This document shows, piece by piece, positions 10,201 through 59,541 of a stretch of 64,000 nucleotides of DNA; the stretch's first letter is position 1; each line of letters opens with the position of its first letter. The DNA is from Candidatus Doudnabacteria bacterium. GTDB lineage: Bacteria > Patescibacteriota > Doudnabacteria > UBA920 > O2-02-FULL-48-8. The position numbers and the translations under genes were made by a program. A model generated the notes under the pieces. That model was not told the DNA's origin and searched no databases. It saw only the letters and a program-made list of their open reading frames with translations. The stretch is from the NCBI GenBank assembly GCA_016186915.1, contig JACPKU010000006.1, positions 12,488 to 76,487 on the forward strand, given 5' to 3'.

Positions 10201-10232
10201 ATCTGACCTCGATTAATCGGTTGGACGGGTAG
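7230..10232 (+). CDS. Large secreted multidomain surface protein: GH5-like (clan GH-A) TIM-barrel domain, polyproline linkers, IPT/TIG-like domain, C-terminal 2-TM VirB2/TrbC-type (T4SS-pilin-like) anchor
   Basis: Signal peptide; LYDLQNEFDG (NEx catalytic-acid motif of clan GH-A); runs of 8-12 Pro; C-terminal LWSLGVSALLAMLMMVLGGYLVMTAAGNAEQSSKGKEFIWSAIIGMGLLFASYLILNTINP two-helix module typical of T4SS-pilin-like tails in CPR surface proteins. Confidence 0.7.
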   Translation: MLNKKQTKFITKGFKILTGAIFVLAVFGSLVSPQAASSTTLTIQGDHFLLNGQAKFLVLAAYFDGLDAPNVGADLDYLKSKGIDGVRVFPNWWDTTTPLIFGNTLMNTDGSLDAGRLNDLRSIISAADSRGMVVDVSFARETVDGPCNTGGRNMMCENEYKNGVVATVQQLSSYSNVLYDLQNEFDGGITNLSSSHVSDLKNRVRAADSSATISASTGSYPGAGSAAAGYTNQYGFDFTNVHSTHLTSASGVAGMISPARSAGKPVYLGEPYHSTFISGGQATASELLNFATETKRTGAAAFVYHTRAGFILDGSSFQGNMTAVETSFLNSLANSLSQTTWGVNLISPPPPPPPPGTDPTPSPTGRVISSLSPTTVQPGDTMTIDGVNLDSTVQIFNSSNLRSTYVGQINASETQVTWLIPADLANGSYRLRVGPNLTDYSNLMPFTITGSTVPPPPPPPPPPPPIDYSPEIPDWVDCSAIPEDLTLLSEWNFWCGITPQPPPPPPPGQDPSNPLSLPGSGAYGMSMAYNPTNNTFLYVSTEGIGTPPNVQSRLIGAILDADDLAVIGGSFRVDQGDEFAASPQVVYNPDQDQFLVVWEDSRAGNNRRHIYGRLFGADGSPLGNDFVIVDLFDAFLNDLIYDDGNKKYVVLFEAGEPMFRTVDASGNLGPIVKVVPQLTEYQGQGNFTYNSNLNEYWTVYVAGVSGSDTQEEDDRIMLMRTDATTLQPVGQPVQLSATRPARNGFAEPKIAYSKYDGAAMTVWLERGRPGEGAGVYGRTVYDDLSLSGEFPVITPVTSPYSDQYGAPQLNYNPYTGLFSVSTLDNNGGTMLTELLVDGTVLGEDQVIGPTGSLGNFNPNSYVGPQGTIVAASTDFASTSATMNRSLFANLGPESQGGSGTVYPPGTPPTPVDTTVLGKLISQIYLWSLGVSALLAMLMMVLGGYLVMTAAGNAEQSSKGKEFIWSAIIGMGLLFASYLILNTINPDLVNFDLTSINRLDG

Positions 10233-21996: not shown

Positions 21997-22270
21997 TCCT
22001 GCATGTTGTTTTGTCGAGCAATCGATTTGCCCAGAAACGTAGAGAAAAGGGAGAAGGTCGGGTGTCTTCTCGAGATACTGGAGATAAAAGAATATACCGT
22101 AACGTAAAATGCGCGGCCGCGAAAAAGACGTGCAGGGAGTTTTTAAGGGTTTTGAGTTTTTTTGATTTGTGTTGGACAATTCGGCGGGGTTGACAAAGAT
22201 TGTTAATTGATATAAGATAATAGTCCTCTCAAAACATGCTTGAAATAAAGGTAGAAAGGAGAAAACTAAA

Positions 22271-22453
22271 ATGCCAAAACATTTGTTGGTTATTTATGAG
22301 ATTGCTCTGAAAGCCGCTCGTGTTACAAACAAAAAAACCTATCGCGAGTTTGAACGATGGGTAAGAAGGGTAATTAACGAGTGCAAAGACGCGGCCGTGG
22401 AGCGAGTGGCCAGAATCCATTTAATCAGGCTGCAGCAACAATTTAGTATGTAA
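22271..22453 (+). CDS. Small hypothetical protein (60 aa)
   Basis: Strong RBS aaaggagaaaac-N5-ATG, TTGACA-like -35 upstream, followed immediately by a terminator. Confidence 0.35.
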   Translation: MPKHLLVIYEIALKAARVTNKKTYREFERWVRRVINECKDAAVERVARIHLIRLQQQFSM

Positions 22454-22490
22454 CAAAACGCCCCGTGATGAGCGGGGCGTTTTGTTACAA
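22451..22490. terminator. Bidirectional intrinsic terminator aacgccccg-tgatgag-cggggcgtt
   Basis: 9-bp GC-rich stem flanked by A/T runs on both strands; sits between the small ORF (+) and scpB (-). Confidence 0.75.
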
Positions 22491-26202: not shown

Positions 26203-26931
26203 CTAGCGCACCGCATCCACGCCGTTGCGGAAGATGGCTAGGCCGTCATCACCTCCTCGAAGTTTGTCCACCCGGCGGTCAGGGTGGGGCATTATTCCCA
26301 TGATCAGACCTGTTGCGTCGCAGGCTGCTGCGATGTGTGAGCCGTTCGGACTGGCCGGGTACTCTTTAGTCCCTTCTTCCGTTCCGTACGTGCCGGTAAT
26401 GTGGAGCCGGTCCAAGTCGCCGACGGGTCGTCCTTCGCCGTGCGCTGTAGGGATCACGATCGGCACACCCTCCAGTCCTTTGGTCCATATGCATCGGACC
26501 TTGGGCTCGTGTAGGTATACCGTGACGTTGTACCAGTGTTCGAAGTTGGCTGACTGGTTGAAATCCAGCGCCACAGTCGGCTCTCTTGCTGGGCCTGCGC
26601 CGATGAGTCCGGCAGCGGTCAGGACCTGGAAGCCGTTGCAGATTCCCAGCATGGGAATCCTTCGTTCGAGTACACGACTCAGTTGATCGGAAAGCCGGAG
26701 TCTCAGGTCAATGGCTTGCACTCGGCCAGTGCCGAAGTGATCGCCGTGACCGAATCCGCCCGGCCAGATAATCAGATCCGCCTCATCCAGCCGGCGCCTG
26801 CCCAGGAGGCACAGCTTGAGCGGCAGGACCTCCGGTCTGGCACCGGCAAGTTCAAGGGCGCGTTGGGTTTCCAGGTGGCAGTTCGTGCCCGGAACCCAAG
26901 GGATGATCGCACGAGGCTTGTGGGTTCTCAT
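26203..26931 (-). CDS. purQ: Phosphoribosylformylglycinamidine synthase, glutaminase subunit PurQ-like (class I GATase); high-GC island
   Basis: PGTNCHLE, PGGFGHGDH, GICNGFQVL, HGEGR, NPNGS motifs; start set at MRTHKP, giving an ATGA overlap with the purL stop; local GC ~60%. Confidence 0.85.
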   Translation of the reverse strand: MRTHKPRAIIPWVPGTNCHLETQRALELAGARPEVLPLKLCLLGRRRLDEADLIIWPGGFGHGDHFGTGRVQAIDLRLRLSDQLSRVLERRIPMLGICNGFQVLTAAGLIGAGPAREPTVALDFNQSANFEHWYNVTVYLHEPKVRCIWTKGLEGVPIVIPTAHGEGRPVGDLDRLHITGTYGTEEGTKEYPASPNGSHIAAACDATGLIMGIMPHPDRRVDKLRGGDDGLAIFRNGVDAVR

Positions 26932-29786
26932 GACACTACCTCCCGGAACGTTTTTGCCCACAGCGTGCTTAGTGTTGCGATGTCGGTTGTGAACAGGCGA
27001 TCCCCCGACACGTCGATTACCTGAACGTCGGGGTTGGGCGTGACCCAGCCGATTTCGACTGCGTCGTGGCCGAGCCATTTGTAGTCATCGGTTTTGGTCG
27101 TGAACACGATGCCACACGACATCTCTCCGAAAAGCGAGAAGAGCGAGTCGAAGGGTAGGTTGAGAACAAACCCGAGCCTGGATCCGATGGCCATCTCGAA
27201 CAGTCTTCGGATTAGTCCACCCTCAACCACGGCCGAACGCGAGCCTACCACACCTTTTCGCGCCAGGCTGTGGTATTTCGAAAATCCCTTGACTGCTTGA
27301 GCGAGGTCCACGATGGGCAGTTCGTTTCCGCGTTGTCCGTAGAGATCGAACAGCACTGATCCGCCGAGGTGCTTCTGCATAAGCCCTGGGCAGAACAGAA
27401 TGATGCGTTCTCCGACGTTTCCGAACGCCTTGGGTCGTAGTAGTCGGCCATCAGCCATGCGGCCAACTGTGAGAATATCCAGTGTCAGCGGCGCGTCGAT
27501 TCGTTCTCCTGATTTCGTTACAAACGTGCCGCTTGAACTGTCTTTGCCGGTGATGATAGGAACCCCGAGTTGTTCTGATGCCGGGACATACCCTTCCTTG
27601 ACCAGCTCGATCAGGGCTCGAGCATTGGTGGGGTTGTCCAGCACCTTAGGAGTGTAGACGTTGGCACAGGCTGTGATCTGCTTTGGGTCAAACCCGGCAG
27701 CCACAAGCTTGGTGACTGCTTGCAGGAAGACAAGTCGACCCAAGCCAGCTGGCGAGACCTCGCCGTAGAACTGATTGACCGCGTTACCTACCCCAAGCGC
27801 AAATCTTTTGCCTGGAACAGGTGCGGCGGCAAACAGATCATCTGGCATGTTCTGATCTTCACCACCGAGGTAGGGGATGAATGTGTTTCCTTGGACGGTC
27901 TGGTCGAATCGGTGTGCAGCCCACGATTGGTCGGCGAGATGGAAGTGGCCGAGGTGCTGGACGACAAGGTCTATCCAGTCCTGCTCGCTTGTGGGGATTG
28001 GCGGTTGGAACGGTTTTGGCTTTGGGAGCCGATCAGCCACCTCAATGCGTGGAAGGGGACAGTCATCCGTGAGGAACTCGTATGGCAGGTCCTCTACAAT
28101 CCCTTTTTCCGAAAGGGCCGGGGTTTGGAGCCATTGACGCTGGTCGAGTTCATCGTCAAACGCCACGACGCAGCGTCCGGTGTTGGTAAACATACCGATT
28201 ACGTCTGACGGCACGTCGTATTGGTCCAGAGTGTCTAGGGCCAGATCAAGGCGGCCAGGAGGAACGGCGATAACCATCCGCTCCTGGGATTCAGATAGCC
28301 AGATTTGCCAGCAGGACAGGCCAGCTGTCTTGAGTCGCACCCAAGCCAGGTTGACCCAGATGCCGCAACTCGAACCCATCTCACCAGCAGCAGAAGCAAG
28401 TCCGGCTGCGCCGCAGTCTGTGATTGCTCGGATGCAGCCCTGGTCGCGCAGAATAGGCACTGCTTCCATGAACTTGCGCTGTTCGATTGGGGCGCCGATT
28501 TGGACATGCGCTGCGTCCACGACTGCTGTTTGGTGGGTCATGCTGTCTGAACTGACCGTGGCGCCGTGGATCCCGTCGTTGCCTGTGGGACCACCAATGA
28601 GGAAGATGAAATCCCCAGGCACAGGTGCGCCCTTTTGGGCTTTGTCCTCGGGAATGATCCCGATACTGTGCCCTAGCGCAAACCCTTTCCAGTTGCGAGG
28701 ATGCATGAGGTAGGCAGAACAGGCCATGGGGATGCCCATTGGGTTCGTATATTCGTGTGTTCCGCGGATGGCTTCTTGGATTACTCTGGCCGGGTGGAAA
28801 GCACCTTCTGGCACGTCGTTCCAGTTGGTTCTGGGATCGGTAGTGGCCATGATGGTTGTGCCGCAAACAGGCCAACCTCCGAGCCCAGTTCCGATAACGT
28901 CGCGGATCACCCCGCCGTGCTTGGTCATGATACCGCCGTAAGGGTCGCCAGCGAATGTGGGAGAGATGTGGGTCTCGCCCTTGATGATCACGGCCCAGCC
29001 GCCGAACAGCTCCATCACTCCGCCGTTGTCCACGAAACATGACAGCACCAGCGGGTGGTTGATCTTTTCGGTCGCGGCCCGAATACACGGCAGCAGCCCC
29101 AGAGCCTTGAAGGTTGTGTGGAAGCAGTGGTCAGACCAGGCCGCGGCCGGATGTTCGAGTTCGACATCAGTCAGTGCGCGTCGCAGATTTCGACTGATGT
29201 GCTGTATCGCTAGTAGTTGTGCGTCCGTGAGGTGAGTCATCTTTCGGCTCTTTGCGAGGGTTTTCAGTTCTGCTTTGTCCATGCCCGCGACTGAAAAAAA
29301 CTGGACGGGCAAAGCCTCTGCTTGAGGGATCAGGGTGTCCCATTGCGCTTCGTTGATCACCTGCACTTCTGGGTTGTACAGATGGCGTGCGGCGATTTCC
29401 CGAGCAGCGATTTCGTCCACACCGGAAAATTGATACCGGTGCGCCAAGCGAACCCAGGTAACACCTTGGACACCGACAGCCTGGAAAGCGTGGAGGGCGG
29501 TTGGCATTTCCGGGTCGGTCATTGCCCGTTTGTAAGCCACTTCGATCACTGGTCCGCGGCTTAGATCGAGACGTGAACTAGAGAACGCAGTCTCGATCAC
29601 GGGATTTGCAAAAAGAATCCCGATGCGCGCCAGGTCAGCGATGGAAAGCTCAGGGCCTTCGCAACGGATCACCACCTCAATGTTCACTGACCTGAGTGAC
29701 GGCCAGGAGGCGAGAGCCGCGGCATGCAGTCTTTTGGCGATTGGGTCGTCGACGGTCCGAGTTTTGAAGAGAGTCAAAATTGGCAT
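26928..29786 (-). CDS. purL: PurS-PurL fusion: phosphoribosylformylglycinamidine synthase synthetase subunit with N-terminal PurS-like domain; high-GC island
   Basis: N-terminal FANPVIETAF-type PurS-like module; ETHISPTFAGDPYGGIMTKHGGVIRDVIGTG matches the PurL ETHNHP..PY.GAATG.GG.IRD motif; duplicated PurM-like halves; start set at the ATG preceded by ggaga (the track start at 29798 is a TTG). Confidence 0.85.
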   Translation of the reverse strand: MPILTLFKTRTVDDPIAKRLHAAALASWPSLRSVNIEVVIRCEGPELSIADLARIGILFANPVIETAFSSSRLDLSRGPVIEVAYKRAMTDPEMPTALHAFQAVGVQGVTWVRLAHRYQFSGVDEIAAREIAARHLYNPEVQVINEAQWDTLIPQAEALPVQFFSVAGMDKAELKTLAKSRKMTHLTDAQLLAIQHISRNLRRALTDVELEHPAAAWSDHCFHTTFKALGLLPCIRAATEKINHPLVLSCFVDNGGVMELFGGWAVIIKGETHISPTFAGDPYGGIMTKHGGVIRDVIGTGLGGWPVCGTTIMATTDPRTNWNDVPEGAFHPARVIQEAIRGTHEYTNPMGIPMACSAYLMHPRNWKGFALGHSIGIIPEDKAQKGAPVPGDFIFLIGGPTGNDGIHGATVSSDSMTHQTAVVDAAHVQIGAPIEQRKFMEAVPILRDQGCIRAITDCGAAGLASAAGEMGSSCGIWVNLAWVRLKTAGLSCWQIWLSESQERMVIAVPPGRLDLALDTLDQYDVPSDVIGMFTNTGRCVVAFDDELDQRQWLQTPALSEKGIVEDLPYEFLTDDCPLPRIEVADRLPKPKPFQPPIPTSEQDWIDLVVQHLGHFHLADQSWAAHRFDQTVQGNTFIPYLGGEDQNMPDDLFAAAPVPGKRFALGVGNAVNQFYGEVSPAGLGRLVFLQAVTKLVAAGFDPKQITACANVYTPKVLDNPTNARALIELVKEGYVPASEQLGVPIITGKDSSSGTFVTKSGERIDAPLTLDILTVGRMADGRLLRPKAFGNVGERIILFCPGLMQKHLGGSVLFDLYGQRGNELPIVDLAQAVKGFSKYHSLARKGVVGSRSAVVEGGLIRRLFEMAIGSRLGFVLNLPFDSLFSLFGEMSCGIVFTTKTDDYKWLGHDAVEIGWVTPNPDVQVIDVSGDRLFTTDIATLSTLWAKTFREVVS

Positions 29787-29902
29787 CAGGTTCTCCAATA
29801 TTGAAAGAAAGATCGTTTTCCTCCTACGAACTTACAAGAACTTCAAGGACGCTCGCCCTTGACTTTCCAGTCTACCATAGTTTGATGGTTGGAGAAAATA
29901 AT

Positions 29903-34932: not shown

Positions 34933-34956
34933 TTATAATACTTTAACGTATTATAA
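34933..34956. promoter_or_regulatory. Perfect palindrome TTATAATAC-TTTAAC-GTATTATAA (copy 1) upstream of the yerC-like gene
   Basis: Read directly; the conserved core AATACTTTAACGTATTATAA is also at 35357-35380 and 59294-59317. Confidence 0.7.
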
Positions 34957-35356: not shown

Positions 35357-35380
35357 TTAAAATACTTTAACGTATTATAA
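35357..35380. promoter_or_regulatory. Palindrome copy 2 (TTAAAATAC-TTTAAC-GTATTATAA) downstream of yerC-like, upstream of rmlC-like
   Basis: One mismatch in the left arm relative to copy 1. Confidence 0.7.
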
Positions 35381-35853: not shown

Positions 35854-35909
35854 TAATTTACGCATTGTTTGACCGATCGGTCAAGAGTTGCGAAAGATTA
35901 TATAGTAAA

Positions 35910-36752
35910 ATGCCACAAAAGATTATAATTCTTGGAAGCAAAGGAAACCTGGGCGGAAAACTTATGGAGGTTTATGCTGACTTAAGGCCCGCTGGCTGGG
36001 ATCGAGAAGAGCTGGATGTGACGGATGAGGAGCAAGTAAAGCCCAAGCTCAAAGAATTTAAACCCGATTTAGTGATCAATTGCACTGCTTATAATGATGT
36101 GGATGGCGCAGAAGAGGATCGGGCAGTGGCAGAAGCGATAAACGGGTTGGCACCTGGCTATCTCGCTGCGGTGTGCGCGGAGATGGACGCTGTTTTTGTG
36201 CATTTTAGCACTGGCCAAGTTTTTGCCGGAGACAATAGTCAGGGGTATAATGAAGACGACGTCCCAAGCCCGCTAAACACCTATGGCAGGTCTAAGCTGA
36301 TGGGGGAGATGGAAGTTGAAAAAAACACTGAAAAATATTATTTGATTCGCACCGCCTGGCTTTATGGGGCTGGCCCGTCGTCGGGCAAGAAGAAGAGTTT
36401 TGTGGATATAATGCTCGATTTGGCGAAAAAGGACAGGCCGATAAAAGGCGTAGATGATGAGTTTGGCAACCCAACCTATAGCTTGGATTTGGCGCAAGCC
36501 GTGCGTGCGATGATAGAAGAGAAAAAGCCGTTTGGAGTTTATCACCTGGTAAACGAAGGCGTGGCTTCGCGTTTGGATTGGATGAAAGAAATATTCATAA
36601 TCAAAGAAATGGAAGTGGGGATTGTGCCAGTAAGTCGTGAGGAGTTTGCAGGCAAACGGAAAGCCAAGCGCCCGCAATACGAAGTTTTGAACAACACGAA
36701 ATTTATCAAGCTTCGGCCGTGGACCGAGGCACTGAAGGAATATTTGAAATGA
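35910..36752 (+). CDS. rfbD: dTDP-4-dehydrorhamnose reductase
   Basis: KIIILGSKGNLG, YGRSKLMGE, RmlD-typical length and order; start set at MPQKIII. Confidence 0.85.
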   Translation: MPQKIIILGSKGNLGGKLMEVYADLRPAGWDREELDVTDEEQVKPKLKEFKPDLVINCTAYNDVDGAEEDRAVAEAINGLAPGYLAAVCAEMDAVFVHFSTGQVFAGDNSQGYNEDDVPSPLNTYGRSKLMGEMEVEKNTEKYYLIRTAWLYGAGPSSGKKKSFVDIMLDLAKKDRPIKGVDDEFGNPTYSLDLAQAVRAMIEEKKPFGVYHLVNEGVASRLDWMKEIFIIKEMEVGIVPVSREEFAGKRKAKRPQYEVLNNTKFIKLRPWTEALKEYLK

Positions 36753-48935: not shown

Positions 48936-50652
48936 AATTTTTCAAATATCAAATAACAAATATCAAATAACAATCATCGTTCTAGTCCTAGCGTTAATGA
49001 TAGGTCCGCTGACGGTGTTTGCGCAAAGTGCAATTGATCCTGCTTTCAATCCCGGACTTTTGATTACTGATACGGCTTTTTCTGATAAAGGCACCTTTGG
49101 TTCCGCTGAAGGAATCCAACAGTTTTTTGAACAACGTGGCTCTGTCTTGGCCCGCACGGACCAAAGCTTTTTACTGAAACTGAAAGAGCCGGACTATGCG
49201 ACCAAGGAAGCCTTGGAGGACCCCAACCCACAGTTAGGCAGATTGAGGTCAGCAGCCGAATTAATCTACGACGCGACGCAAAAGCACGGCTTGAATCCGC
49301 AAGTTATCTTGGTACTGCTGCAGAAAGAACAGAGTCTCGTAGACGGCAATTTTACCAGCGATGATCGATTGCAAAGAGCTTTGGATCGAGCACTAGGCTT
49401 TGGGTGCCCGGACAATGGCGGGTGCGGTGACATATTTTTAAGTTTCTACCGTCAGCTGTTTGGATCATTTGATTCGCAAGGAAGCCGGTGGCTTGGCGCT
49501 GCTGCGTCTTTGATGCGTTCATTTGAGACGGCGGGCGGGAGAGGTCCGAGAGTTGATTCTGCAAACCAAGTTTTTGGCAGCCCGACCGTCCGAACTTCGC
49601 AGGTCGGGGATACCATAGTTTTGGACAACACGACAGGCGGATATAGCGGAGTTCAGCCAACCCAGAGTGTTACCATTGGCAACAAGGCTACCGCCGCACT
49701 TTATCGCTACACACCGCATGTGTTTAACGGGAATTATAATTTTTGGCGATTTTACAGCAAGTGGTTTAAGTATCCGAACGGCACAGTGATTCAATTAAGC
49801 GGCGAAGCGGTGCGATACGTAATTGATAATGGAACCAAAAGATTATTTTCTGACTTCGTGGCGGTTCAGCGAAAGTTGAAAACCGACACAGTCGTAACTT
49901 TGTCTCAGTCAGAGTTCAGCGAGTATTTGACAGAGAAGCCGCTGCCTCCTTTGGAAGATACTTTGCTCAAGGGCGAGGCGGATGCCACGGTGTTTGTTGT
50001 TAAAGTTAACAAAAAGCGGCCGATCTCTGGAGCTGTATTTTCGCAGCGCGGTCTGTCATTTGCCAAGGTGGTGAGTTTGCCGCAAGCGGAAGTTGATGGC
50101 TATGAATTGGGGGCGCACTTGCCGCCCAAAGACGGCACGCTGATTATCGCTGAATCTGACCCAACAGTTTATTTGATTGAGAACGGCGTGAAACGGCCGA
50201 TTACCGGTGATGTATTTACGGCACGCAAGTTTTCTTTCAAGAATTTAATGCGGCTTACTGATCCGGAATTGGCCAGTCTTCCTACCGGCGATTTTGTACG
50301 GCCTCCTGACAGTACCGCACTCCAGCTCAAAGGCGATACGGGAATTTATTGGTTCAAGGACGGGCAGAAACGATTTGTCTCTGCATTTGTTTACAAACAG
50401 CGCGGTGTTAATGCTTTCCCGCATATCATTATTGGGTCAGAAGAATTTGAGCAGGTTCCGACGGCCACGCCTTTTCCGCCCCGCGATGGCACAGTGATCA
50501 AGGGTGATGTAAGCACCGCAATTTATAGGATTGAGAACGGTGTAAAAAGAATGTTTACGGCAGCATCTTATGCCGTTGCCAGACACCCCGTGGCCACGGT
50601 CCTGCCGCAAGCCGAAGTCGACAGTTTTGCCGAAGGTGCCGTGATCGAATAA
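48928..50652 (+). CDS. Secreted hypothetical protein with N-terminal unknown domain and 4-5 copies of the same ~55-aa repeat found in the S8 protease
   Basis: Repeat consensus G(T)L(I/V)K..SDPTVY.IENGVKR.I....F..R.(L/F)SF..V..L...E; apparent TTG start overlapping the S8 stop with a good signal peptide. Confidence 0.55.
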   Translation: MNKIFQISNNKYQITIIVLVLALMIGPLTVFAQSAIDPAFNPGLLITDTAFSDKGTFGSAEGIQQFFEQRGSVLARTDQSFLLKLKEPDYATKEALEDPNPQLGRLRSAAELIYDATQKHGLNPQVILVLLQKEQSLVDGNFTSDDRLQRALDRALGFGCPDNGGCGDIFLSFYRQLFGSFDSQGSRWLGAAASLMRSFETAGGRGPRVDSANQVFGSPTVRTSQVGDTIVLDNTTGGYSGVQPTQSVTIGNKATAALYRYTPHVFNGNYNFWRFYSKWFKYPNGTVIQLSGEAVRYVIDNGTKRLFSDFVAVQRKLKTDTVVTLSQSEFSEYLTEKPLPPLEDTLLKGEADATVFVVKVNKKRPISGAVFSQRGLSFAKVVSLPQAEVDGYELGAHLPPKDGTLIIAESDPTVYLIENGVKRPITGDVFTARKFSFKNLMRLTDPELASLPTGDFVRPPDSTALQLKGDTGIYWFKDGQKRFVSAFVYKQRGVNAFPHIIIGSEEFEQVPTATPFPPRDGTVIKGDVSTAIYRIENGVKRMFTAASYAVARHPVATVLPQAEVDSFAEGAVIE

Positions 50653-50678
50653 ACAGAGAACGAGAATCAAACGTAACA

Positions 50679-50692
50679 TTCACGATCGTGAA
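50679..50692. promoter_or_regulatory. Perfect 14-bp palindrome TTCACGATCGTGAA (copy 1) 15 nt upstream of the PaaX-like gene
   Basis: Extended 27-nt match ttcacgatcgtgaaaaag(g/a)cgttag shared with copy 2 at 51324-51350. Confidence 0.7.
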
Positions 50693-50706
50693 AAAGGCGT
50701 TAGATC

Positions 50707-51267
50707 ATGAAAGCGAGCACAAAAAGGAAAATCAAAAAGAAAAGCCTCCAGCTCACCAAACAAATATTGGTAACTTTAGCAACAGCTCCGAAAGCTCTTT
50801 TTGATATTTTTATAGATAGCAGTCCTTATACCAGACGTTTGTTTGCTGACCGTGAAATTACTCGGAGTCAATTGCAACGCGCAATACAGGATTTAAAAAG
50901 GCAGCGCTTAATTAAGATGAGGGAATATAAGCAAAAACTGATTTATGAGCTAACTGACCTGGGAAGAGCGCAAATGCTTCGGTGGAATTACAAATTTCGC
51001 CCTAAGCAAGAGAGACGAGATGGCTTAGGCACCATCGTGATATTTGACATCCCTGAAACTAAACGGCAGGCGCGTGATTTCTTGCGGCGTTTTTTAAAAG
51101 AGAATCAATTCACTCAGTTGCAGAAAAGTGTGTTTATTGGACGGTTTTGGCTACTGGCAGAGTTTTATGATTTATTGACTGAACTTCGAATAGTAGAACA
51201 TGTATCAGTGTTGGAAGGACGAATTCCACATACGACTGCTAATAATCGTTTTAGAAACCGTTCCTAA
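50707..51267 (+). CDS. PaaX-like small transcriptional regulator (winged-helix N-terminal domain + Cas2-fold middle domain)
   Basis: LIYELTDLGRAQMLRW (wHTH) followed by GTIVIFDIPETKRQARDFLRRFLKENQFTQLQKSVFIG (Cas2-like beta-alpha-beta pattern seen in the PaaX central domain). Confidence 0.55.
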   Translation: MKASTKRKIKKKSLQLTKQILVTLATAPKALFDIFIDSSPYTRRLFADREITRSQLQRAIQDLKRQRLIKMREYKQKLIYELTDLGRAQMLRWNYKFRPKQERRDGLGTIVIFDIPETKRQARDFLRRFLKENQFTQLQKSVFIGRFWLLAEFYDLLTELRIVEHVSVLEGRIPHTTANNRFRNRS

Positions 51268-51317
51268 ATTATTAATTGTGGTGTAATGGTAAATAACCGT
51301 AAACTTAATTTTCTAGC

Positions 51318-51350
51318 GTATAATTCACGATCGTGAAAAAGACGTTAGGG
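51318..51350 (+). promoter_or_regulatory. -10 box TATAAT fused to palindrome TTCACGATCGTGAA (copy 2): repressor-type operator overlapping the promoter of the purM-like gene
   Basis: tagcgTATAATTCACGATCGTGAAaaagacgttag read directly. Confidence 0.65.
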
Positions 51351-51463
51351 AGGGAAGCAAGAAAAACTGCATTTGCATAAGGTCTTCAGTATTGATATTC
51401 TGATATATCAAGTCAGGACTTGAAGTTTTGGTGTTTCGTGGACAATTCAGAGGGGAGGATTCT

Positions 51464-52615
51464 ATGCGTCAGAGCGAGTATGCTCAAGCCGGAGTCGATT
51501 ACACGCAGATCCAAGGGTTCAAGGACGCAATGGTCGAAGTGGGGAAGAAAACTCTGGCTTTCCCAAATCGGCGAGGCGTCTACGTCGAGCAAGACGTCAT
51601 GCACAGCCACGGGGTGGTTTACTACTACCACGGGCCGGCGAGGACTCATCGTTGGGCGAAGACCCAGGAAGGCCTTGGCAACAAGAACTGGATCGCCGAA
51701 TGGATGTACCAGTTCAGTGGAACGGGTCGGACCTACTACGAAGGTATCGGGATCGACACTGCCCGCATGGCAGTCAACGACAACATCGCTCAGGGCGCGA
51801 TGCCTGCCGTGTACACCGACGAGGTCGCGGCCGGTCCAAGCAGTTGGTTTTCAGACCGGCGTCGAGCGGCGGATTTGGCGAACGGGTTCTTTCGTGCATG
51901 TGAAGAGGATGGGATGGCTCTCGGAGCAGGCGAATCGCCAGCGCTCAAGTACCTCATCAACGCGCTGCCGCCGGTTACCAGTGCACCGTCCCTGAGTGGG
52001 TCGGTTACGGGGATCATTGCGCCAGCAAGTCGGCTGATCACCGGCAAGAAGCTGCGAGCTGGGGACAAGATCATCGGCGTGCCTTCGAGCGGTCTTCAGG
52101 CGAACGGAATTTCGCTCGTGATCCGTCGAACCATGGGCGACCCGTCAGCCGGCATCCCTCCATTGAAGGACGGGTTCCTCACCAAGTTGCCGAACGGCAA
52201 CACTCTTGGAGAGGAAGCGTTGATCCCGACGCGGTCATACGTGGCGTTCGTTGAAGCGCTTCAGGAAGCTGATGTGGAGATTCACGCACTACTTCCTGGG
52301 ACAGGGGATGGCGTCGCGAAGCTGGCGTTCGACAAGCGTCCGTTCACTTACCGCGTACACACCTGGACGCCGAACATTCCGCTTTTGTTCTTGTTCATGC
52401 GGGAGTTGGGCGTTTCCCTGGAAGATTGTCTCAAGACTTTCAACTGGGGGATCGGCCTCTACGCGTTCGTGCCGCCTAACGAAGTTGACCATGTGATCCA
52501 GATCGGGAGGGACATAGGGGACGAGGTCCTGGAGGTCGGGGTGGTCGAGCAGGGTGAACGCATGACCATCTTCGGGCCAGCGAACGATCTTAAGCTCCCA
52601 CCCCCAGGGGAGTAG
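51464..52615 (+). CDS. purM: Phosphoribosylformylglycinamidine cyclo-ligase (AIR synthetase) PurM homologue with a ~45-aa insertion; high-GC island
   Basis: EYAQAGVDY (PurM SYKDAGVDI), GIGIDTARMAVNDNIAQGAMP, PSSGLQANGISLVIRR (PurM GSSGPHSNGYSLVRK), ALIPTRSYV (LLAPTRIYV), KTFNWGIGLYAFVP; SD ggggagg-N6-ATG; GC ~60%. Confidence 0.8.
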   Translation: MRQSEYAQAGVDYTQIQGFKDAMVEVGKKTLAFPNRRGVYVEQDVMHSHGVVYYYHGPARTHRWAKTQEGLGNKNWIAEWMYQFSGTGRTYYEGIGIDTARMAVNDNIAQGAMPAVYTDEVAAGPSSWFSDRRRAADLANGFFRACEEDGMALGAGESPALKYLINALPPVTSAPSLSGSVTGIIAPASRLITGKKLRAGDKIIGVPSSGLQANGISLVIRRTMGDPSAGIPPLKDGFLTKLPNGNTLGEEALIPTRSYVAFVEALQEADVEIHALLPGTGDGVAKLAFDKRPFTYRVHTWTPNIPLLFLFMRELGVSLEDCLKTFNWGIGLYAFVPPNEVDHVIQIGRDIGDEVLEVGVVEQGERMTIFGPANDLKLPPPGE

Positions 52616-52641
52616 CGGGGATGCTATTGTCCGGATCTGTT

Positions 52642-52679
52642 GCCGCTTTCGTGAGGGAATGAAAGCGGCTTATTTTTTT
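52642..52679 (+). terminator. Intrinsic terminator gccgctttc..gaaagcggc followed by a T-run
   Basis: 9-bp stem then ttattttttt; marks the end of the high-GC island. Confidence 0.75.
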
Positions 52680-52696
52680 GCTATAATGGGATTACC

Positions 52697-54220
52697 ATGA
52701 CCTATGATTTGAAACAGCGTGGGGGGAAGCTGATTTTGCTGACTGCCATCATCGCTTCTGGCATGGCGTTTTTGGATGGCACAGTGGTGAATATCGCCCT
52801 GCCTGTGATTCAGGAAAGCTTTGGCGCGAGTTTGGGGCAATTAGCCTGGATCGTGAACGCGTTTGCCTTGACTCTCGCGTCCTTTTTGTTGATCAGCGGA
52901 GCGCTGGCTGATCGTTTGGGGCGCAAGAAAATGTTTTTGTTTGGGATCGTGTTGTTCACGCTGTCCTCTTTGTGGTGCGCTTTGGCGCGGGATGCCACCA
53001 TGTTGATTATCGCGCGCGCTGTGCAGGGTTTGGGCGCGGCCATCATGATCCCAGGCAGCCTGACTATTATTAATTTATCTTTTGAGTCCAGCACCCGCGG
53101 CAAGGCCATTGGACTTTGGTCCGGCCTTTCCGGAGGGATTGCGGCGCTGGGCCCCTTCTTGGGCGGCGCTTTGGTGCAGAGTTTTGGCTGGCCGTCGATT
53201 TTTCTTATCAATTTACCACTCGGGGTGATCGCGTTTTTAGTGGGCTGGTGGGTGATTGCAGAAAGCAAAGCGGAGCAGGAGGGCAAGATTGACTGGTGGG
53301 GCGTGATCTTGTTAGTGCTGGGATTAACCGGTTTATCTTACGGCTTGATGCAAGCGCCGGCTCGAGGCTTTAGCCACCCGTTTATTCTGGCAGGTTTAAT
53401 TGGCGGAGCAGTATTGTTGGTTGCGTTTATCCTCCTCGAACTAAGAATCGCGAATGCCATCATGCCGTTGCATATTTTCAAAAATCGGCTGGTCGCGGGC
53501 GCCAATTTGGTCACCCTGTTTCTGTATTTCGCCCTCTATGGCACGATTTTCTTTTTGCCCTTAATTTTTCAACAAGCCCAGGGGTATACGCCGCTGCAGG
53601 CGGGGTTGGCGTTATTGCCCTCAATTTTGATTATTACGTTTCTTTCAGGTCCCGCAGGTGGCTTGGCAGACAAAATTGGACCCAGAAAGCAAATGATTTT
53701 TGGGCCCCTGACCGTGGCCATCGGTTTTGCGTCTTTGATCTGGCCCAATGTTGGGACGAATTACTGGACTGGTTATTTTCCGGGATTGGCATTGTTCGGT
53801 TTAGGCATGGCATTTGTGATCGCGCCCTTAACCAAGTCAGCGCTGTCGGTGGAAGAACGTTTCTCAGGTGCGGCTTCTGGCGTGAATAACGCGGTTTCCA
53901 GAATCGCGGCTTTACTCGCAGTGGCGATTCTGGGCATCGTGGCGTTGGGATTGTTTGGAGACAATTTAGCGGAAAAATTAAAACAAACCTCGCTTCACGA
54001 AGCGCAAAGACAGGAAATCAAAAACCAAGCGGACAAGCTTGGTGGCATAGAGATTCCAGAAACTTTTAATCAGGTCGAAGCCTCGGAAGCCGCAAGAGTG
54101 ATAGATGAAGCATTCGTCTTCAGCTTCAGATGGATCGCCGGAATTAACGCGCTCTTAGCGTTTTTGAGTGCCTTGGTTTCAGTTTGGTTGATACGTCCGA
54201 AAGTCAAGCCAGTTATTTAG
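52697..54220 (+). CDS. MFS transporter, DHA2 (EmrB/QacA-type, 14 TM) drug:H+ antiporter family
   Basis: MFS motif A-like LADRLGRKKMF, 14 predicted helices; TATAAT 9 nt upstream of the ATG. Confidence 0.85.
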   Translation: MTYDLKQRGGKLILLTAIIASGMAFLDGTVVNIALPVIQESFGASLGQLAWIVNAFALTLASFLLISGALADRLGRKKMFLFGIVLFTLSSLWCALARDATMLIIARAVQGLGAAIMIPGSLTIINLSFESSTRGKAIGLWSGLSGGIAALGPFLGGALVQSFGWPSIFLINLPLGVIAFLVGWWVIAESKAEQEGKIDWWGVILLVLGLTGLSYGLMQAPARGFSHPFILAGLIGGAVLLVAFILLELRIANAIMPLHIFKNRLVAGANLVTLFLYFALYGTIFFLPLIFQQAQGYTPLQAGLALLPSILIITFLSGPAGGLADKIGPRKQMIFGPLTVAIGFASLIWPNVGTNYWTGYFPGLALFGLGMAFVIAPLTKSALSVEERFSGAASGVNNAVSRIAALLAVAILGIVALGLFGDNLAEKLKQTSLHEAQRQEIKNQADKLGGIEIPETFNQVEASEAARVIDEAFVFSFRWIAGINALLAFLSALVSVWLIRPKVKPVI

Positions 54221-55279
54221 CTCCGACTGTGTAGAAACATAGCCGGCGATATCGGTGCTAACACCTTTCCTAATTCCCAAATGCAGGTGTTTGCGTTCGT
54301 CGTCGGTTTCTGTGCTAAATCCGTTTCCTAAGACAGCAATTTGTTCTCCCGGCAAAATATAATTGCCGGGATTTTTCGTCACAGAAGAAAGCCGGACGTG
54401 TCCATACAATATAGTCACATTTTGCCCTTCAATTTCGCAATCTTGAATGATTAAGCCGCCATAACCAGAAGTAGAGCGTTTTTGCCTGAGACTGCCACCG
54501 CAGATCGCATAGACTGCCACATCCGTGTTTTCTTCACCCGGCAAGATTTCATAATCCACAGCATTGTGAAAGCCGGTAAATTTTTCCGGGCTGACTGGGG
54601 AGTTGCCGGGTTCCACGTAAAGGCCAAAGGGTTTTTTCGTCACTCTTTCATTCGCCCGGTCAATCGGCTGCTTGAGGCCTGCTTGGTCATTGTGAAAAGC
54701 CAAACTATCCAGAAAATTTTCAAATTCATTTTCAGAATATTCGGGGTTGTGTGCAAACACGTAAAAAGTAGTAGGGGAATTTTGAGAGAAACGAATGTCT
54801 GTGAGTTTGTGTTGTTCATTTCGCCACGAAGGCTGGGAAGGAAAATTTGCCACCCCTGGTTTTTTCCTGATTTCGTATTCGACAGCGGCGTGTCCGTGAA
54901 TTTCGGTTTCATTCCTTTGTAAAATATCCACGGTAGTAAGCGTCAGAAATTGGCTGGCTTCAAAGTAACGAATAAAAATCCGCGAGCGTTCCCGCAGGTC
55001 GCCATCGCCGTCTTTTTCGTAAAGATTGAGGCTTTCTATTTCCGGCACGTATTCCACAGCCAAATCTTCAGAAATTTCTGCAGAGAATCGGAATTTGGGA
55101 TTAAAGCCGGCAAACTCCATGCGGTTGACATCTGCCTCAGTTTGTGGCGAATCGGATGCTTGATTATTCAAGGGTTGATTTGAGAGCCGCGAGTCACTGG
55201 ATCTATTGCTAAACACGATTATCCCAATGATTATAAGCAATCCCGCCAATCCCCATCCAATATATTTATAGTTATTCAT
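54179..55279 (-). CDS. Membrane-anchored M23-family (LytM-like) metallopeptidase
   Basis: HNAVDY (HxxxD) and HLHLGI (HxH) zinc-ligand motifs; N-terminal TM; 3' end overlaps the convergent MFS gene by ~40 nt. Confidence 0.8.
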   Translation of the reverse strand: MNNYKYIGWGLAGLLIIIGIIVFSNRSSDSRLSNQPLNNQASDSPQTEADVNRMEFAGFNPKFRFSAEISEDLAVEYVPEIESLNLYEKDGDGDLRERSRIFIRYFEASQFLTLTTVDILQRNETEIHGHAAVEYEIRKKPGVANFPSQPSWRNEQHKLTDIRFSQNSPTTFYVFAHNPEYSENEFENFLDSLAFHNDQAGLKQPIDRANERVTKKPFGLYVEPGNSPVSPEKFTGFHNAVDYEILPGEENTDVAVYAICGGSLRQKRSTSGYGGLIIQDCEIEGQNVTILYGHVRLSSVTKNPGNYILPGEQIAVLGNGFSTETDDERKHLHLGIRKGVSTDIAGYVSTQSELNNWLDFRTYQPN

Positions 55280-55329: not shown

Positions 55330-56781
55330 ATGTTGCAAATTGGCCGGAACATTTTTAGTCTAGTGTTTAGTCGGGTAATTGCCGGGATTATCCTGTTTTT
55401 AATTTATGCCCAACTGGCGCAGTATTTGGGACCGGTGAAGGCCGGGCAATACGGCCTCTTGGCAGGATTCATCACGGTGTTTAGCATATTCGTGGATTTG
55501 GGCATGTCCCAGCTGGTGATCAAAAAAATCAGCGAGGACAGGGCGCGTGCCTCAAAAATACTAGCCAATTATTTTAGTATACAGTTTTTGTTGGGGGTAG
55601 GGTTTATGCTGATTATGGCTGGATATATTTTCACCACGGACTATCCGCAGATCGTGAAAAATGCCTTGTATATCACCAGCGTGGCTCTACTTCTTTCGTC
55701 CATGAGTTTGCCGTTTCGTTCAGTGATCAACGCTTTTCAGAAATTAACCATCATCGCCCAAGTTAATTTTGTCAATTCAGTGATCAACGGCGGCATGATG
55801 ATTTTGGCCATTTATTTCCGCACCGACATTTTTTTTCTGGCTTTTATTAGTATCGCTGTCAGCGTATTTGATTTGCTGATCTATGGAATAGTCACGCACA
55901 AAAAATTTACGCCTTTCCGGATAGAATTTGATAAATCATTCGTCAAACAACTTTTTATCTGGACCTTCCCTTTTACCTTGCTGACTTTTTTCAGCATTTA
56001 CAACCGGATTGACGCGCTCATGCTCCCGCAGCTGCGGGATTTTCGTGAGACTGGTTATTATGCGGCGGCTTACAAGTTTTGGGATGTGCTGGCTTTTTTC
56101 CCGGCGGTGATCGCGATCTCGCTTTATCCTTTTTTTGCGGAAGCTTTGAGCCGCAATCTTAGAGATCAAGCAAAAAAGGGATTGGAAACCTATACGCGTT
56201 ACATGATTGCGATTGCTCTGCCATTGGCAGCCGGTGCTTTTTTAGTCTCGGGTGAACTTATAAATATTTTTTACGGTGCAGATTTTGCTCCAGCGGCCCC
56301 TGCCATGTGGATCTTGATTGCTGCGGTGGCAGTGCTGTTTATTTATACGCCTGTTAACAGCATGATTATTTCCCAAGAGACCAAGGCTGCTACCAAGATA
56401 ACCGGATTTACTTTGCTGTTTAACTTTACGACCAACTTGATTTTCATCCCGATCTTTGGGTTTGTGGCCGCGGCTGTAACCACAGTGGCCAGCGAGTTGA
56501 TCCAGCTGTTTGGGTATACTTGGGTGATAAAGCGGCGGGTGGTGCAGTTTCAATTTTTTAGACATTTCATAAAACCGATTGCTGCAGTGGTCGTGATGGC
56601 TGGGGCAGTTGTTTATCTGAAACCTTTGCTCCAGCTTTGGCTTGTGATTGGGTTGGCAGGAGTGATTTATGCGATGGCGTTATACTTGCTTAAATTTTTT
56701 AACCGAGAAGACTGGGAGCTGTTTAAGGCCGCAGTGAACGTCCGCAAACAAGTGGATACAGAAAGGGATGTGATCACATGA
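55330..56781 (+). CDS. Polysaccharide biosynthesis protein / Wzx-like flippase (MOP superfamily)
   Basis: 12-14 TM with MOP-flippase-like N-terminal pattern. Confidence 0.7.
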   Translation: MLQIGRNIFSLVFSRVIAGIILFLIYAQLAQYLGPVKAGQYGLLAGFITVFSIFVDLGMSQLVIKKISEDRARASKILANYFSIQFLLGVGFMLIMAGYIFTTDYPQIVKNALYITSVALLLSSMSLPFRSVINAFQKLTIIAQVNFVNSVINGGMMILAIYFRTDIFFLAFISIAVSVFDLLIYGIVTHKKFTPFRIEFDKSFVKQLFIWTFPFTLLTFFSIYNRIDALMLPQLRDFRETGYYAAAYKFWDVLAFFPAVIAISLYPFFAEALSRNLRDQAKKGLETYTRYMIAIALPLAAGAFLVSGELINIFYGADFAPAAPAMWILIAAVAVLFIYTPVNSMIISQETKAATKITGFTLLFNFTTNLIFIPIFGFVAAAVTTVASELIQLFGYTWVIKRRVVQFQFFRHFIKPIAAVVVMAGAVVYLKPLLQLWLVIGLAGVIYAMALYLLKFFNREDWELFKAAVNVRKQVDTERDVIT

Positions 56782-59293: not shown

Positions 59294-59317
59294 GTAAAAT
59301 ACTTTAACGTATTATAA
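59294..59317. promoter_or_regulatory. Palindrome copy 3 (TAAAATAC-TTTAAC-GTATTATAA) upstream of the small basic protein + GT2 genes
   Basis: Core AATACTTTAACGTATTATAAG is identical to copy 2. Confidence 0.7.
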
Positions 59318-59319
59318 GT

Positions 59320-59541
59320 ATGCGCAAACTTAATTCCAAATTAAATCGTAAACAACAAAGAGAAAAGCTGCTTCAGAAGATGCTTTTCCTGATTCGGAAA
59401 AGTCCGGGGATTAGGCCGTCTAAACTTAATCGGCTTTTGAAGCTTGCTCATTCGGCGAGTTTTCGAAAGACATTAATTAAGCGTGGACTGATTATAAAAC
59501 GTAAAAAGGGTCCGGCGGTTTATTATTATGCACAAAGTTAG
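59320..59541 (+). CDS. Small basic (Lys/Arg-rich) hypothetical protein, possible winged-helix DNA-binding protein
   Basis: 73 aa with predicted pI above 10; overlaps the GT2 start by 14 nt. Confidence 0.4.
   Translation: MRKLNSKLNRKQQREKLLQKMLFLIRKSPGIRPSKLNRLLKLAHSASFRKTLIKRGLIIKRKKGPAVYYYAQS

Follow-up and report, generated by a model that had tools for sequence, protein, structure and literature searches.

A mini-PaaX gene enclosed by twin CGATCG-type palindromes in a Doudnabacteria genome: a candidate autoregulated repressor cassette with a PurM gene behind it

The stretch of DNA studied here (the window; 64,000 nucleotides (nt) of contig JACPKU010000006.1) belongs to a metagenome-assembled genome (MAG) of Candidatus Doudnabacteria, a lineage of the ultra-small bacteria of the Candidate Phyla Radiation (CPR, or Patescibacteria). 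It contains a small gene (50707–51267, + strand) for a protein of 186 amino acids (aa), which we call mini-PaaX. In this protein, a winged helix at the N-terminus precedes a Cas2-like domain of the ferredoxin fold (residues ~104–172), and a PaaX_C domain is lacking. Two copies of a palindromic repeat enclose the gene, one upstream (50667–50703, +) and one downstream (51312–51348, +). Behind the downstream copy lies a gene for a CPR-type PurM, the aminoimidazole ribonucleotide (AIR) synthetase, of 383 aa (51464–52615, +). The regulator and PurM proteins are identical to HYW51_01755 and HYW51_01760, whose contig is 420 kb long. A preliminary description of the locus had proposed an autoregulated repressor that gates a horizontally acquired purine gene. 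Judged from the sequence comparisons below, the twin palindrome is a hallmark of the mini-PaaX family, independent of the gene that happens to lie downstream.

The core of the repeat is a perfect palindrome of 14 base pairs (bp), TTCACGATCGTGAA. Its only exact copies in the window are at 50679–50692 and 51324–51337, as the preliminary description had noticed, and none of 100 shuffles reached the same count. When two mismatches are allowed, all further matches lie within coding sequence. The palindromes are thus non-random, and their positions, one where the regulator gene begins and one ahead of PurM, are as had been described. Conserved nucleotides beyond the palindrome had been claimed as well, and they exist: the direct repeat runs over 26 nt with a single mismatch (50678–50703 and 51323–51348) and widens to 37 nt at 86% identity (50667–50703 and 51312–51348). 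In the upstream copy, the palindrome lies within the frame ACGTAACAT...AAAAAGGCGT.

Each of the two palindromes adjoins a −10-like hexamer. At the first it is TAACAT (50674–50679); at the second it is TATAAT (51319–51324), which indeed abuts the palindrome. For the regulator, reading of the sequence suggests a weak sigma-70-like promoter candidate at 50650–50679 (+), with a −35-like TAAACA (50650–50655), a spacer of 18 nt and the TAACAT hexamer overlapping the first base of the palindrome. The centre of the downstream copy is found 63 nt past the stop codon of the regulator and 134 nt ahead of the start codon of PurM. A terminator scan detected no intrinsic terminator between the two genes. 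The downstream copy itself was considered as a terminator and rejected, as it has no consistent T-run and its stem is followed by A-rich sequence in the window.

The mini-PaaX protein matches the Pfam family PaaX_M (PF20803) over residues 104–179 with an E-value of 1e-14 (54.8 bits, cutoff 24), and the Pfam family Cas2 (PF09827) with 1.4e-6. The score against the Cas2 profile TIGR01573 is 23.9, just under the cutoff of 24.5. The score against the PaaX equivalog TIGR02277 is far lower than its cutoff (20.5 bits vs 264.55), and no PaaX_C domain could be matched in the protein, which ends at residue 186. An AlphaFold2 model (pLDDT 83.8) consists of an N-terminal winged helix (helices 53–65 and 84–96 and the hairpin 69–82) and a C-terminal beta-alpha-beta-beta-alpha-beta domain. 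When this model was compared with known structures by Foldseek, the top match was E. coli PaaX (8a39), followed by Cas2 proteins (5zyf, 5xvo and 2ivy) and the PaaX-like Rv0674 (3kfw). The profile of the N-terminal domain matches winged-helix proteins of the ArsR, MarR and AspA types. All of this bears out the earlier view that the protein combines the N-terminal and central domains of PaaX. Control by a small molecule, which had also been suggested, is conjecture because the C-terminal domain of PaaX is absent.

Across 46 family sequences the Cas2-like half is far better conserved than the winged helix, and six residues (D114, I115, P116, R123, Q139 and S141) are invariant in all 46. Scans with Pfam and TIGR profiles found no transposase, recombinase or Cas1 domain in mini-PaaX, nor was there a Y1_Tnp match or a conserved His-x-His in the protein. 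No paa genes were found among the neighbours, either in the window or in at least 80 related loci.

Relatives of mini-PaaX are numerous. When clustered at 50% identity (E ≤ 1e-10), the family falls into 4,463 clusters, nearly all of them with proteins of 150 to 230 aa. A profile scan of the species representatives in GTDB returned at least 525 relatives, from which we kept 80 loci, nearly all of them CPR. For each gene, we compared the 230 nt ahead of the start codon with the 250 nt behind the stop codon and took the best direct match without gaps as a twin-repeat score. A score of at least 14 was reached by 54 of 83 non-redundant regulator genes, but only by 1 of 135 neighbouring control genes. 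At a score of at least 18, the numbers are 41 of 83 and 0 of 135. Most of the remaining loci keep one or two core-type palindromes at the ends of the gene. Extra copies of a locus's own repeat are found in only 1 of 46 loci.

The bracketing repeats are palindromes of 20–46 bp with a CGATCG-type centre. The most common centre is ACGATCGT (40), followed by GCGATCGC (12), CCGATCGG (9), GCTATAGC (7) and ACGGCCGT (6). The arms are lineage-specific between genomes, yet they are self-complementary and alike between the two copies of a locus. In-phase A-tracts are present in the Doudnabacteria sites. The median palindrome centre lies 35 nt ahead of the start codon and 37 nt past the stop codon, and the two centres are separated by 542–843 bp (median 642). 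Across the loci, we found no helical phasing of the paired sites.

What lies behind the cassette varies. Of 48 next downstream genes, 29 point in the same direction as the regulator gene and 19 (40%) are convergent with it. The co-directional genes are functionally unrelated; they include rpsL and the genes for ComEC, MgsA, TruB, PRPP synthetase, RNase HII and others. In view of these heterogeneous neighbours and the high share of convergent ones, we rejected a coherent downstream regulon. In two orthologous loci (L001 and L005), the upstream neighbours are the same as in the window (an S8 peptidase and a protein of ~570 aa), and the regulator gene is again flanked by two repeat copies, which have a different sequence, ACG(C/T)AAAATGCGCGGCCGCGCGAAA. 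In a further locus (L002), the repeat reads GGAACATAAAA-GACGATCGTCC-AAAACATGTTCC, and a convergent smpB lies downstream. The Doudnabacteria homologues group together at 45–64% identity, and similarity between the proteins follows taxonomy. A phage origin of the family was also considered and dropped, as no relatives were found in the viral contigs of IMG/VR. Our literature searches (PaaX, Cas2-like, CPR, palindrome) did not turn up a description of this self-bracketing architecture, although the coverage of these searches was limited and the result is absence of evidence only.

Some genomes carry two to three mini-PaaX paralogues: L014, L031 and L044 come from one Daviesbacteria MAG, L023 and L084 from one Microgenomates MAG. 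Each paralogue for which twin sites were detected is bracketed by its own, different palindrome (none were detected in L044). Such paralogue-specific palindromes suggest, at the level of sequence, that the proteins and their sites form orthogonal pairs.

Sites of the same design also occur away from the regulator gene. A third site in the window is found at 22102–22131 (+; 22098–22134 if defined more widely). It consists of the outer frame ACGTAAAAT...AAAAAGACGT around a central palindrome CGCGGCCGCG, and reads ACGTAAAAT-GCGCGGCCGCG-AAAAAGACGT. The outer frame is the same as in both copies at the cassette, and the core belongs to the type found on either side of the orthologous regulators in L001 and L005. 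The frame pattern has three matches in the window, compared to 0.03 expected. The site lies ~60 nt upstream of a promoter (TTGACA-17-TAAGAT) of a 60-aa open reading frame (ORF; 22271–22453), which has its own Shine-Dalgarno (SD) sequence and terminator, so that the unit from promoter to terminator spans 22191–22486. A fourth CGATCG-centred palindrome, a perfect one of 16 bp (TTGACCGATCGGTCAA, 35869–35884, +), is intergenic. It separates an rmlC-like gene from rmlD/rmlA, just upstream of rmlD (35910–36752), and is identical to the palindrome that brackets a paralogous mini-PaaX gene in another locus (L009). This identity predicts that a second mini-PaaX paralogue, encoded elsewhere in the genome, would regulate rhamnose genes.

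A scan of metagenomes with the 18-mer of the window returned 59 contigs. Many of the single hits are probably due to chance, which is why we dropped the attempt to define a regulon in this way; only twin hits and palindromes of at least 22 bp are informative. In three contigs (L107, L127 and L131), twin copies of the 18-mer bracket a mini-PaaX gene. In two contigs from Hainich groundwater, they bracket a DUF1653-like gene of 71 aa downstream of secA; one of these (L093, 1–1150) has an additional 176-aa gene inside the bracket, and the other (L097, 1–720) does not. The repeat unit of these two contigs is ~110 nt long and contains two CGATCG palindromes ~80 nt apart, TACGATCGT and TTCACGATCGTGAAAAAGTG. 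Neither contig contains a mini-PaaX gene. Nine further contigs (L106, L108, L116, L118, L125, L129, L133, L136 and L143) carry solitary palindromes of 34–40 bp, several of them perfect. Their inner 22 bp, CTTTTTCACGATCGTGAAAAAG, are common to all, and their outer arms differ. They are mostly intergenic, have no regulator gene nearby and come from organisms with a GC content of 29–53%. Since sites of the same design exist away from regulator genes, mini-PaaX proteins probably have a few further targets in trans.

The gene behind the cassette in the window was described earlier as a PurM homologue of high GC content (~60%), and both parts of this description are correct. Its GC content is 59%, and 71% at third codon positions (GC3). 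The protein matches TIGR00878 at 4e-39 over positions 2–331 of 332, contains the N- and C-terminal AIRS domains (PF00586 and PF02769, both above their cutoffs) and aligns end to end with solved PurM structures, the best being 9jzy at 3e-27. The TIGR00878 score of 134.7 bits falls under the cutoff of 236.35 because the whole CPR clade is divergent; clade-wide motif changes include EGLGNK, AGES and LLPGTGxG. The motif DX4GAXP, which is typical of the PurM superfamily (PMC2978367), is kept as DNIAQGAMP.

More than 1,300 homologues of this PurM exist. The best 120 are 62–78% identical and occur in many CPR phyla. Homologues at 66–77% identity sit within complete pur operons, with the orders purD-purN and purSL-purQ-purM in one genome (L086) and purL-purQ-purK-purE-purM-purC-purB in another (L087). 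Because its homologues are found in complete pur operons, the gene is, as far as can be told from sequence, an ordinary AIR synthetase of the CPR clade. A PurM-superfamily enzyme repurposed for another function, the second option of the preliminary description, is thus unlikely. The inserted segment of ~45 aa that had been noted in PurM does not exist as such: compared to 9jzy, the additional length is scattered over several insertions of 4–8 residues.

One residue of the PurM in the window stands out. For human AIRS, the conserved histidines His620 and His680 have been proposed to assist cyclisation (PMC2978367). In the window, the motif SSGxH(A/S)NG reads SSGLQANG (residues ~209–216), with Gln in place of His. 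Among the best 120 homologues, this Gln is found only in the protein of the window, whereas 113 have His in a recognisable motif and 6 did not fit the motif pattern. At the position of the 'HITGGG' His of classical PurMs, the whole CPR clade has Pro or Gly; only the motifs connect these positions to the numbering of the human residues.

The signals around PurM are partly as previously described. An SD sequence (GAGGGGAGGA, 51450–51459) and an intrinsic terminator (52642–52679, +; hairpin at 52642–52669 with an 11-bp stem followed by a T-run) were both found where they had been proposed. The low-GC leader between the downstream repeat and the gene (51349–51463, +) had been described as ~125 nt long and structured. 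It is not significantly structured: its predicted fold has a z-score of −0.05, 92 of 200 shuffles fold equally well, and there is no match in Rfam even at E ≤ 5. A riboswitch or any other structured leader was therefore rejected. The PurM terminator is followed by the TGnTATAAT promoter (52659–52687, +) of the next gene, which encodes an MFS transporter.

The GC step coincides with the borders of the PurM ORF. GC3 is about 50% in the neighbouring genes, and the GC content of the window is 45.5%. Elsewhere, GC3 of PurM is 69% in the nearest sampled relative (L086) and a host-like 30% in the copy of a Nealsonbacteria genome (L089). The composition fits horizontal acquisition, as proposed earlier, and the gene was probably acquired from a CPR donor of higher GC content, if the direction of transfer is read from base composition.

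Together with the genes for the MFS transporter (52697–54220, +) and an M23 peptidase (54179–55279, −), PurM forms a block of ~4 kilobases (kb) that is absent from the syntenic locus L001, which nevertheless keeps both copies of the site. In L001, the cassette is followed by a Polysacc_synt flippase gene that matches 55330–56781 of the window with 69% identity, and therefore the window holds these additional ~4 kb relative to L001.

PurL and PurQ genes had been placed on another high-GC island 22 kb away, and this holds: the second high-GC stretch (26203–29798, − strand) encodes a PurSL-like fused protein (PurS, linker and PurL (AIRS), 956 aa) and, beside it, a PurQ-like amidotransferase (GATase_5). 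Both genes are compositionally atypical. Besides PurM, they are the only genes of de novo purine synthesis in the window. Our site search of the window found no copy of the palindrome at this stretch. When compared with L086, identity is 53% for PurSL and 77% for PurM; the two islands may have different histories.

Taking these results together, we think it somewhat more likely than not that the locus is an autoregulated repressor cassette whose second operator gates PurM only incidentally. A dimer of mini-PaaX, or a dimer of dimers, would bind the palindromes as double-stranded DNA. At the upstream copy, which covers the candidate promoter and 5' end of the gene, binding would lead to negative autoregulation. 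The downstream copy would serve as a second operator, either by forming a loop of ~640 bp or as a roadblock, and in this position it could insulate the unit and gate the transcription that leaves the cassette. PurM is probably co-controlled, since the downstream copy abuts a TATAAT box and no terminator follows the regulator. This co-control would be an accident of the landing place, with the PurM-MFS-M23 block lying directly behind the downstream copy, and would not make PurM a member of a purine regulon. From the further sites at 22.1 kb and 35.9 kb, it seems that mini-PaaX proteins have a small number of other promoters as targets in trans. One could speculate that the conserved Cas2-like half reads the conserved centre of the palindrome, and the variable winged helix reads the variable arms or frame.

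Several of our results do not sit well with this autoregulated cassette. A consensus promoter scan flagged neither of the two candidate promoters (regulator and PurM), the TATAAT box ahead of PurM has no convincing −35 element, and promoters and transcription start sites are guessed throughout. The site at 22102–22131 combines the same frame with a different core, so that either part of a site could be the one that confers specificity. Residues of the winged helix and its recognition helix show no clean covariation with the core type, although phylogeny confounds this comparison and the classes are small. The family has no known conserved target gene. At up to 46 bp, the palindromes are longer than one small dimer should cover, and they could equally well form hairpins or cruciforms. 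The two copies of a locus are also alike in their non-palindromic flanks, which a symmetric operator alone does not explain. As a test for RNA hairpins we compared mismatches in the arms: 38 are G:T and 26 are A:C, an asymmetry that is not significant and that neither excludes nor supports a single-stranded role. In short, a simple operator model does not fully account for the long perfect palindromes, the non-palindromic flanks, the conserved Cas2-type Asp and the differences in adjacent gene content. These observations leave some room for two rival explanations, hairpins in RNA or single-stranded DNA and a selfish or mobile cassette.

The reading of the preliminary description differs from the one we prefer in what the twin operators are for. 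According to it, a PaaX-like repressor that responds to a ligand arose for, or was recruited to, the dedicated task of gating a purine-pathway gene gained by horizontal transfer. A palindrome that abuts a TATAAT box ahead of PurM, the missing terminator between regulator and PurM, and the atypical composition of both PurM and PurSL/PurQ all fit this idea. We nevertheless consider it quite improbable: twin sites belong to the regulator family whatever lies downstream, the syntenic orthologue in L001 has no PurM behind it, there is no site at PurSL/PurQ, and the protein has no PaaX_C or effector domain. What survives is that PurM is plausibly under the control of the cassette; what does not survive is a pair of operators dedicated to a purine island. 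Even less can be said for an artefact, in which the repeat and the GC islands would stem from a chimeric assembly or from chance. The GC steps at the ORF borders are sharp, and two Logan contigs break at or just past the second palindrome (L150 starts at 51324 and L151 at 51396 of the window). Such breaks are expected if a repeat of 26–37 nt confuses k-mer assembly. A third Logan contig from a separate sequencing run (L149) reads through the repeat and is identical to the window over 4,811 bp (48977–53787), including both GC junctions. The window thereby passes the check for misassembly that had been called for, with no assembly fault at the GC steps, and the statistics of the palindrome leave no room for chance. 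The probability of an artefact is thus close to nil.

Two further explanations take the unusual geometry of the sites more seriously. The palindromes could act as single-stranded hairpins, at the ends of the mRNA or in transiently single-stranded DNA, and be bound or cleaved by the RRM-like Cas2 fold. The outcome would be post-transcriptional autoregulation or processing of a transcript that resembles a repeat-insert-repeat pre-crRNA. This would account for palindromes that are very long and perfect, with compensatory changes in the arms and, where the loop would be, a conserved centre, for a downstream copy that is always in the position of a 3' untranslated region, and for the strict conservation of the Cas2-type Asp and several polar residues. 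The excess of G:T over A:C mismatches points in the same direction, but it is slight and falls short of significance. However, −10- and −35-like elements overlap or abut many upstream copies (judged by eye), so that the 5' hairpin would often be incompletely transcribed. Furthermore, the N-terminal domain is of the classical winged-helix type that binds DNA, with its matches to ArsR, MarR and AspA proteins, and the in-phase A-tracts of the Doudnabacteria sites fit an architecture of duplex DNA. Hence, we regard hairpin recognition as improbable. Alternatively, the cassette could be selfish or mobile, with direct repeats at which recombination or cleavage takes place, or which arose by duplication of a palindromic target much as CRISPR repeats are duplicated or as in the end hairpins of IS200/IS605, and a Cas2-fold protein that aids excision, integration or maintenance of the site. 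The hairpin-gene-hairpin layout of ~650 bp resembles IS200, and the direct repeats include non-palindromic flanks. Genomic contexts vary, each paralogue has its own repeat, gene content differs beside the sites (PurM-MFS-M23 between the window and L001, the 176-aa gene between L093 and L097), and the solitary long palindromes could be empty sites. Yet no domain of a transposase, a recombinase or Cas1 is present in the protein, each specificity has a single copy with extra copies in only 1 of 46 loci, similarity between proteins tracks taxonomy (45–64% within Doudnabacteria), the family is absent from viral contigs, and no pair with an empty site was found. A mobile cassette therefore appears quite improbable to us.

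A more far-reaching version of these ideas would be that mini-PaaX and its two palindromes form an autonomous genetic unit, something beyond a transcription factor with operators. The Cas2-fold protein would recognise, and possibly nick, pair or segregate, CGATCG palindromes that form hairpins or cruciforms and that it maintains to the left and right of its gene. If so, the sites would be hot spots of cassette gain and loss, which the PurM-MFS-M23 block (window vs L001) and the 176-aa gene (L093 vs L097) fit. In its repeat-insert-repeat logic, the unit would be related to CRISPR arrays and casposons, but it would not depend on Cas1. We consider this a long shot.

If an autoregulated cassette is the correct interpretation, the locus in the window is one example of a large unnamed family of predicted small DNA-binding proteins, each paired with a predicted cognate site that can be read from the genome itself through the bracketing. 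To our knowledge, almost nothing is known about gene regulation in CPR bacteria, and most of these organisms are unculturable. Dozens of pairs of proteins and sites now become testable in vitro without cultivation, and they possibly represent an orthogonal set of repressors and operators. The regulatory geometry, in which a gene lies between two copies of the site predicted for its product, is unusual, and the fusion of a Cas2 fold with a winged helix is relevant to the relationship between Cas2 and PaaX. The part played by PurM is a lesser one: single genes of purine synthesis probably move between CPR lineages and can land under resident cassettes.

Some other features of the window are worth recording. 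The sequence AAAATACTTTAACGTATTATAA occurs three times (34935–34956, 35359–35380 and 59296–59317) and contains an inverted repeat AATAC-N6-GTATT and the −10-like TATTATAA. The first two copies are just upstream of a Trp-repressor-like gene (34958) and of the rmlC-like gene (35401), and the third is ~210 nt upstream of a gene at 59528. It is possibly a common promoter and operator, perhaps for the TrpR-like protein. Between 3678 and 4083 there are three tandem segments of 34 nt (AGAAGAAGCGGGAGCGAAGGT...TTGAAATAA), 175–197 nt apart, which resemble the 3' ends of small ORFs that were duplicated in tandem. Finally, in a 1000-aa protein (7230–10232), a GH5 cellulase-like domain is joined to a type IV secretion pilin domain at the C-terminus. 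This pairing is unusual, and typical of proteins on the surface of CPR bacteria.

How does the cassette compare to known systems? PaaX is a repressor of paa genes that responds to phenylacetyl-CoA and binds palindromic operators at promoters. Mini-PaaX has the same order of domains as PaaX (8a39) and Rv0674 (3kfw), a winged helix and then a Cas2-like central domain. Unlike PaaX, it is about 120 residues shorter, has no PaaX_C domain, scores 20.5 with TIGR02277, where the cutoff is 264.6, and has no paa genes nearby. Its site differs as well, with a CGATCG centre, arms of at least 23 nt at the longest and two copies that bracket the gene, and no ligand is known. With Cas2, mini-PaaX shares the ferredoxin-like fold, in which the beta1 'xDI' Asp and the 'Q-x-SVF' strand are conserved. 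A partially palindromic repeat of ~30 bp on both sides of an insert is also reminiscent of the duplication of CRISPR repeats. In contrast to Cas2 and CRISPR, however, there are only two repeats ~640 bp apart, the 'spacer' is the gene itself, and the Cas2 domain is fused to a winged helix. There were no cas1 or other cas genes among the proteins scanned in the window and the neighbourhoods, and no CRISPR array among the direct repeats. Hence, mini-PaaX shares the architecture of PaaX but is neither PaaX proper (PaaX_C, equivalog score, paa genes) nor Cas2 (cas1, array).

IS200/IS605 elements and REP/RAYT systems resemble the cassette in size and layout, with a unit of ~650–700 bp in which one small gene lies between similar palindromes of the same orientation. 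They differ from it in their enzyme: mini-PaaX is not an HUH/Y1 transposase and has no HUH motif, the unit is single-copy, and there is no sign of transposition. The hairpin-gene-hairpin unit thus recalls the layouts of IS200, REP/RAYT and CRISPR, although the enzymes that define these systems are absent. The PurM gene resembles classical PurM (TIGR00878; 9jzy, 1cli, 2z01 and 2v9y) in its N- and C-terminal AIRS domains, its full-length alignment and its DX4GAXP motif; it differs in that it stands alone and belongs to a divergent clade under the equivalog cutoff. A last comparison is with the looping repressors LacI, GalR, DeoR and lambda CI. The cassette differs in that its second operator lies past the 3' end of the repressor's own gene, so that a loop would enclose the whole gene, and in that helical phasing is not seen. 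What the cassette shares with them is a pair of identical operators hundreds of bp apart, one of them at a promoter, and by analogy paired operators would be a plausible route to cooperative autorepression.

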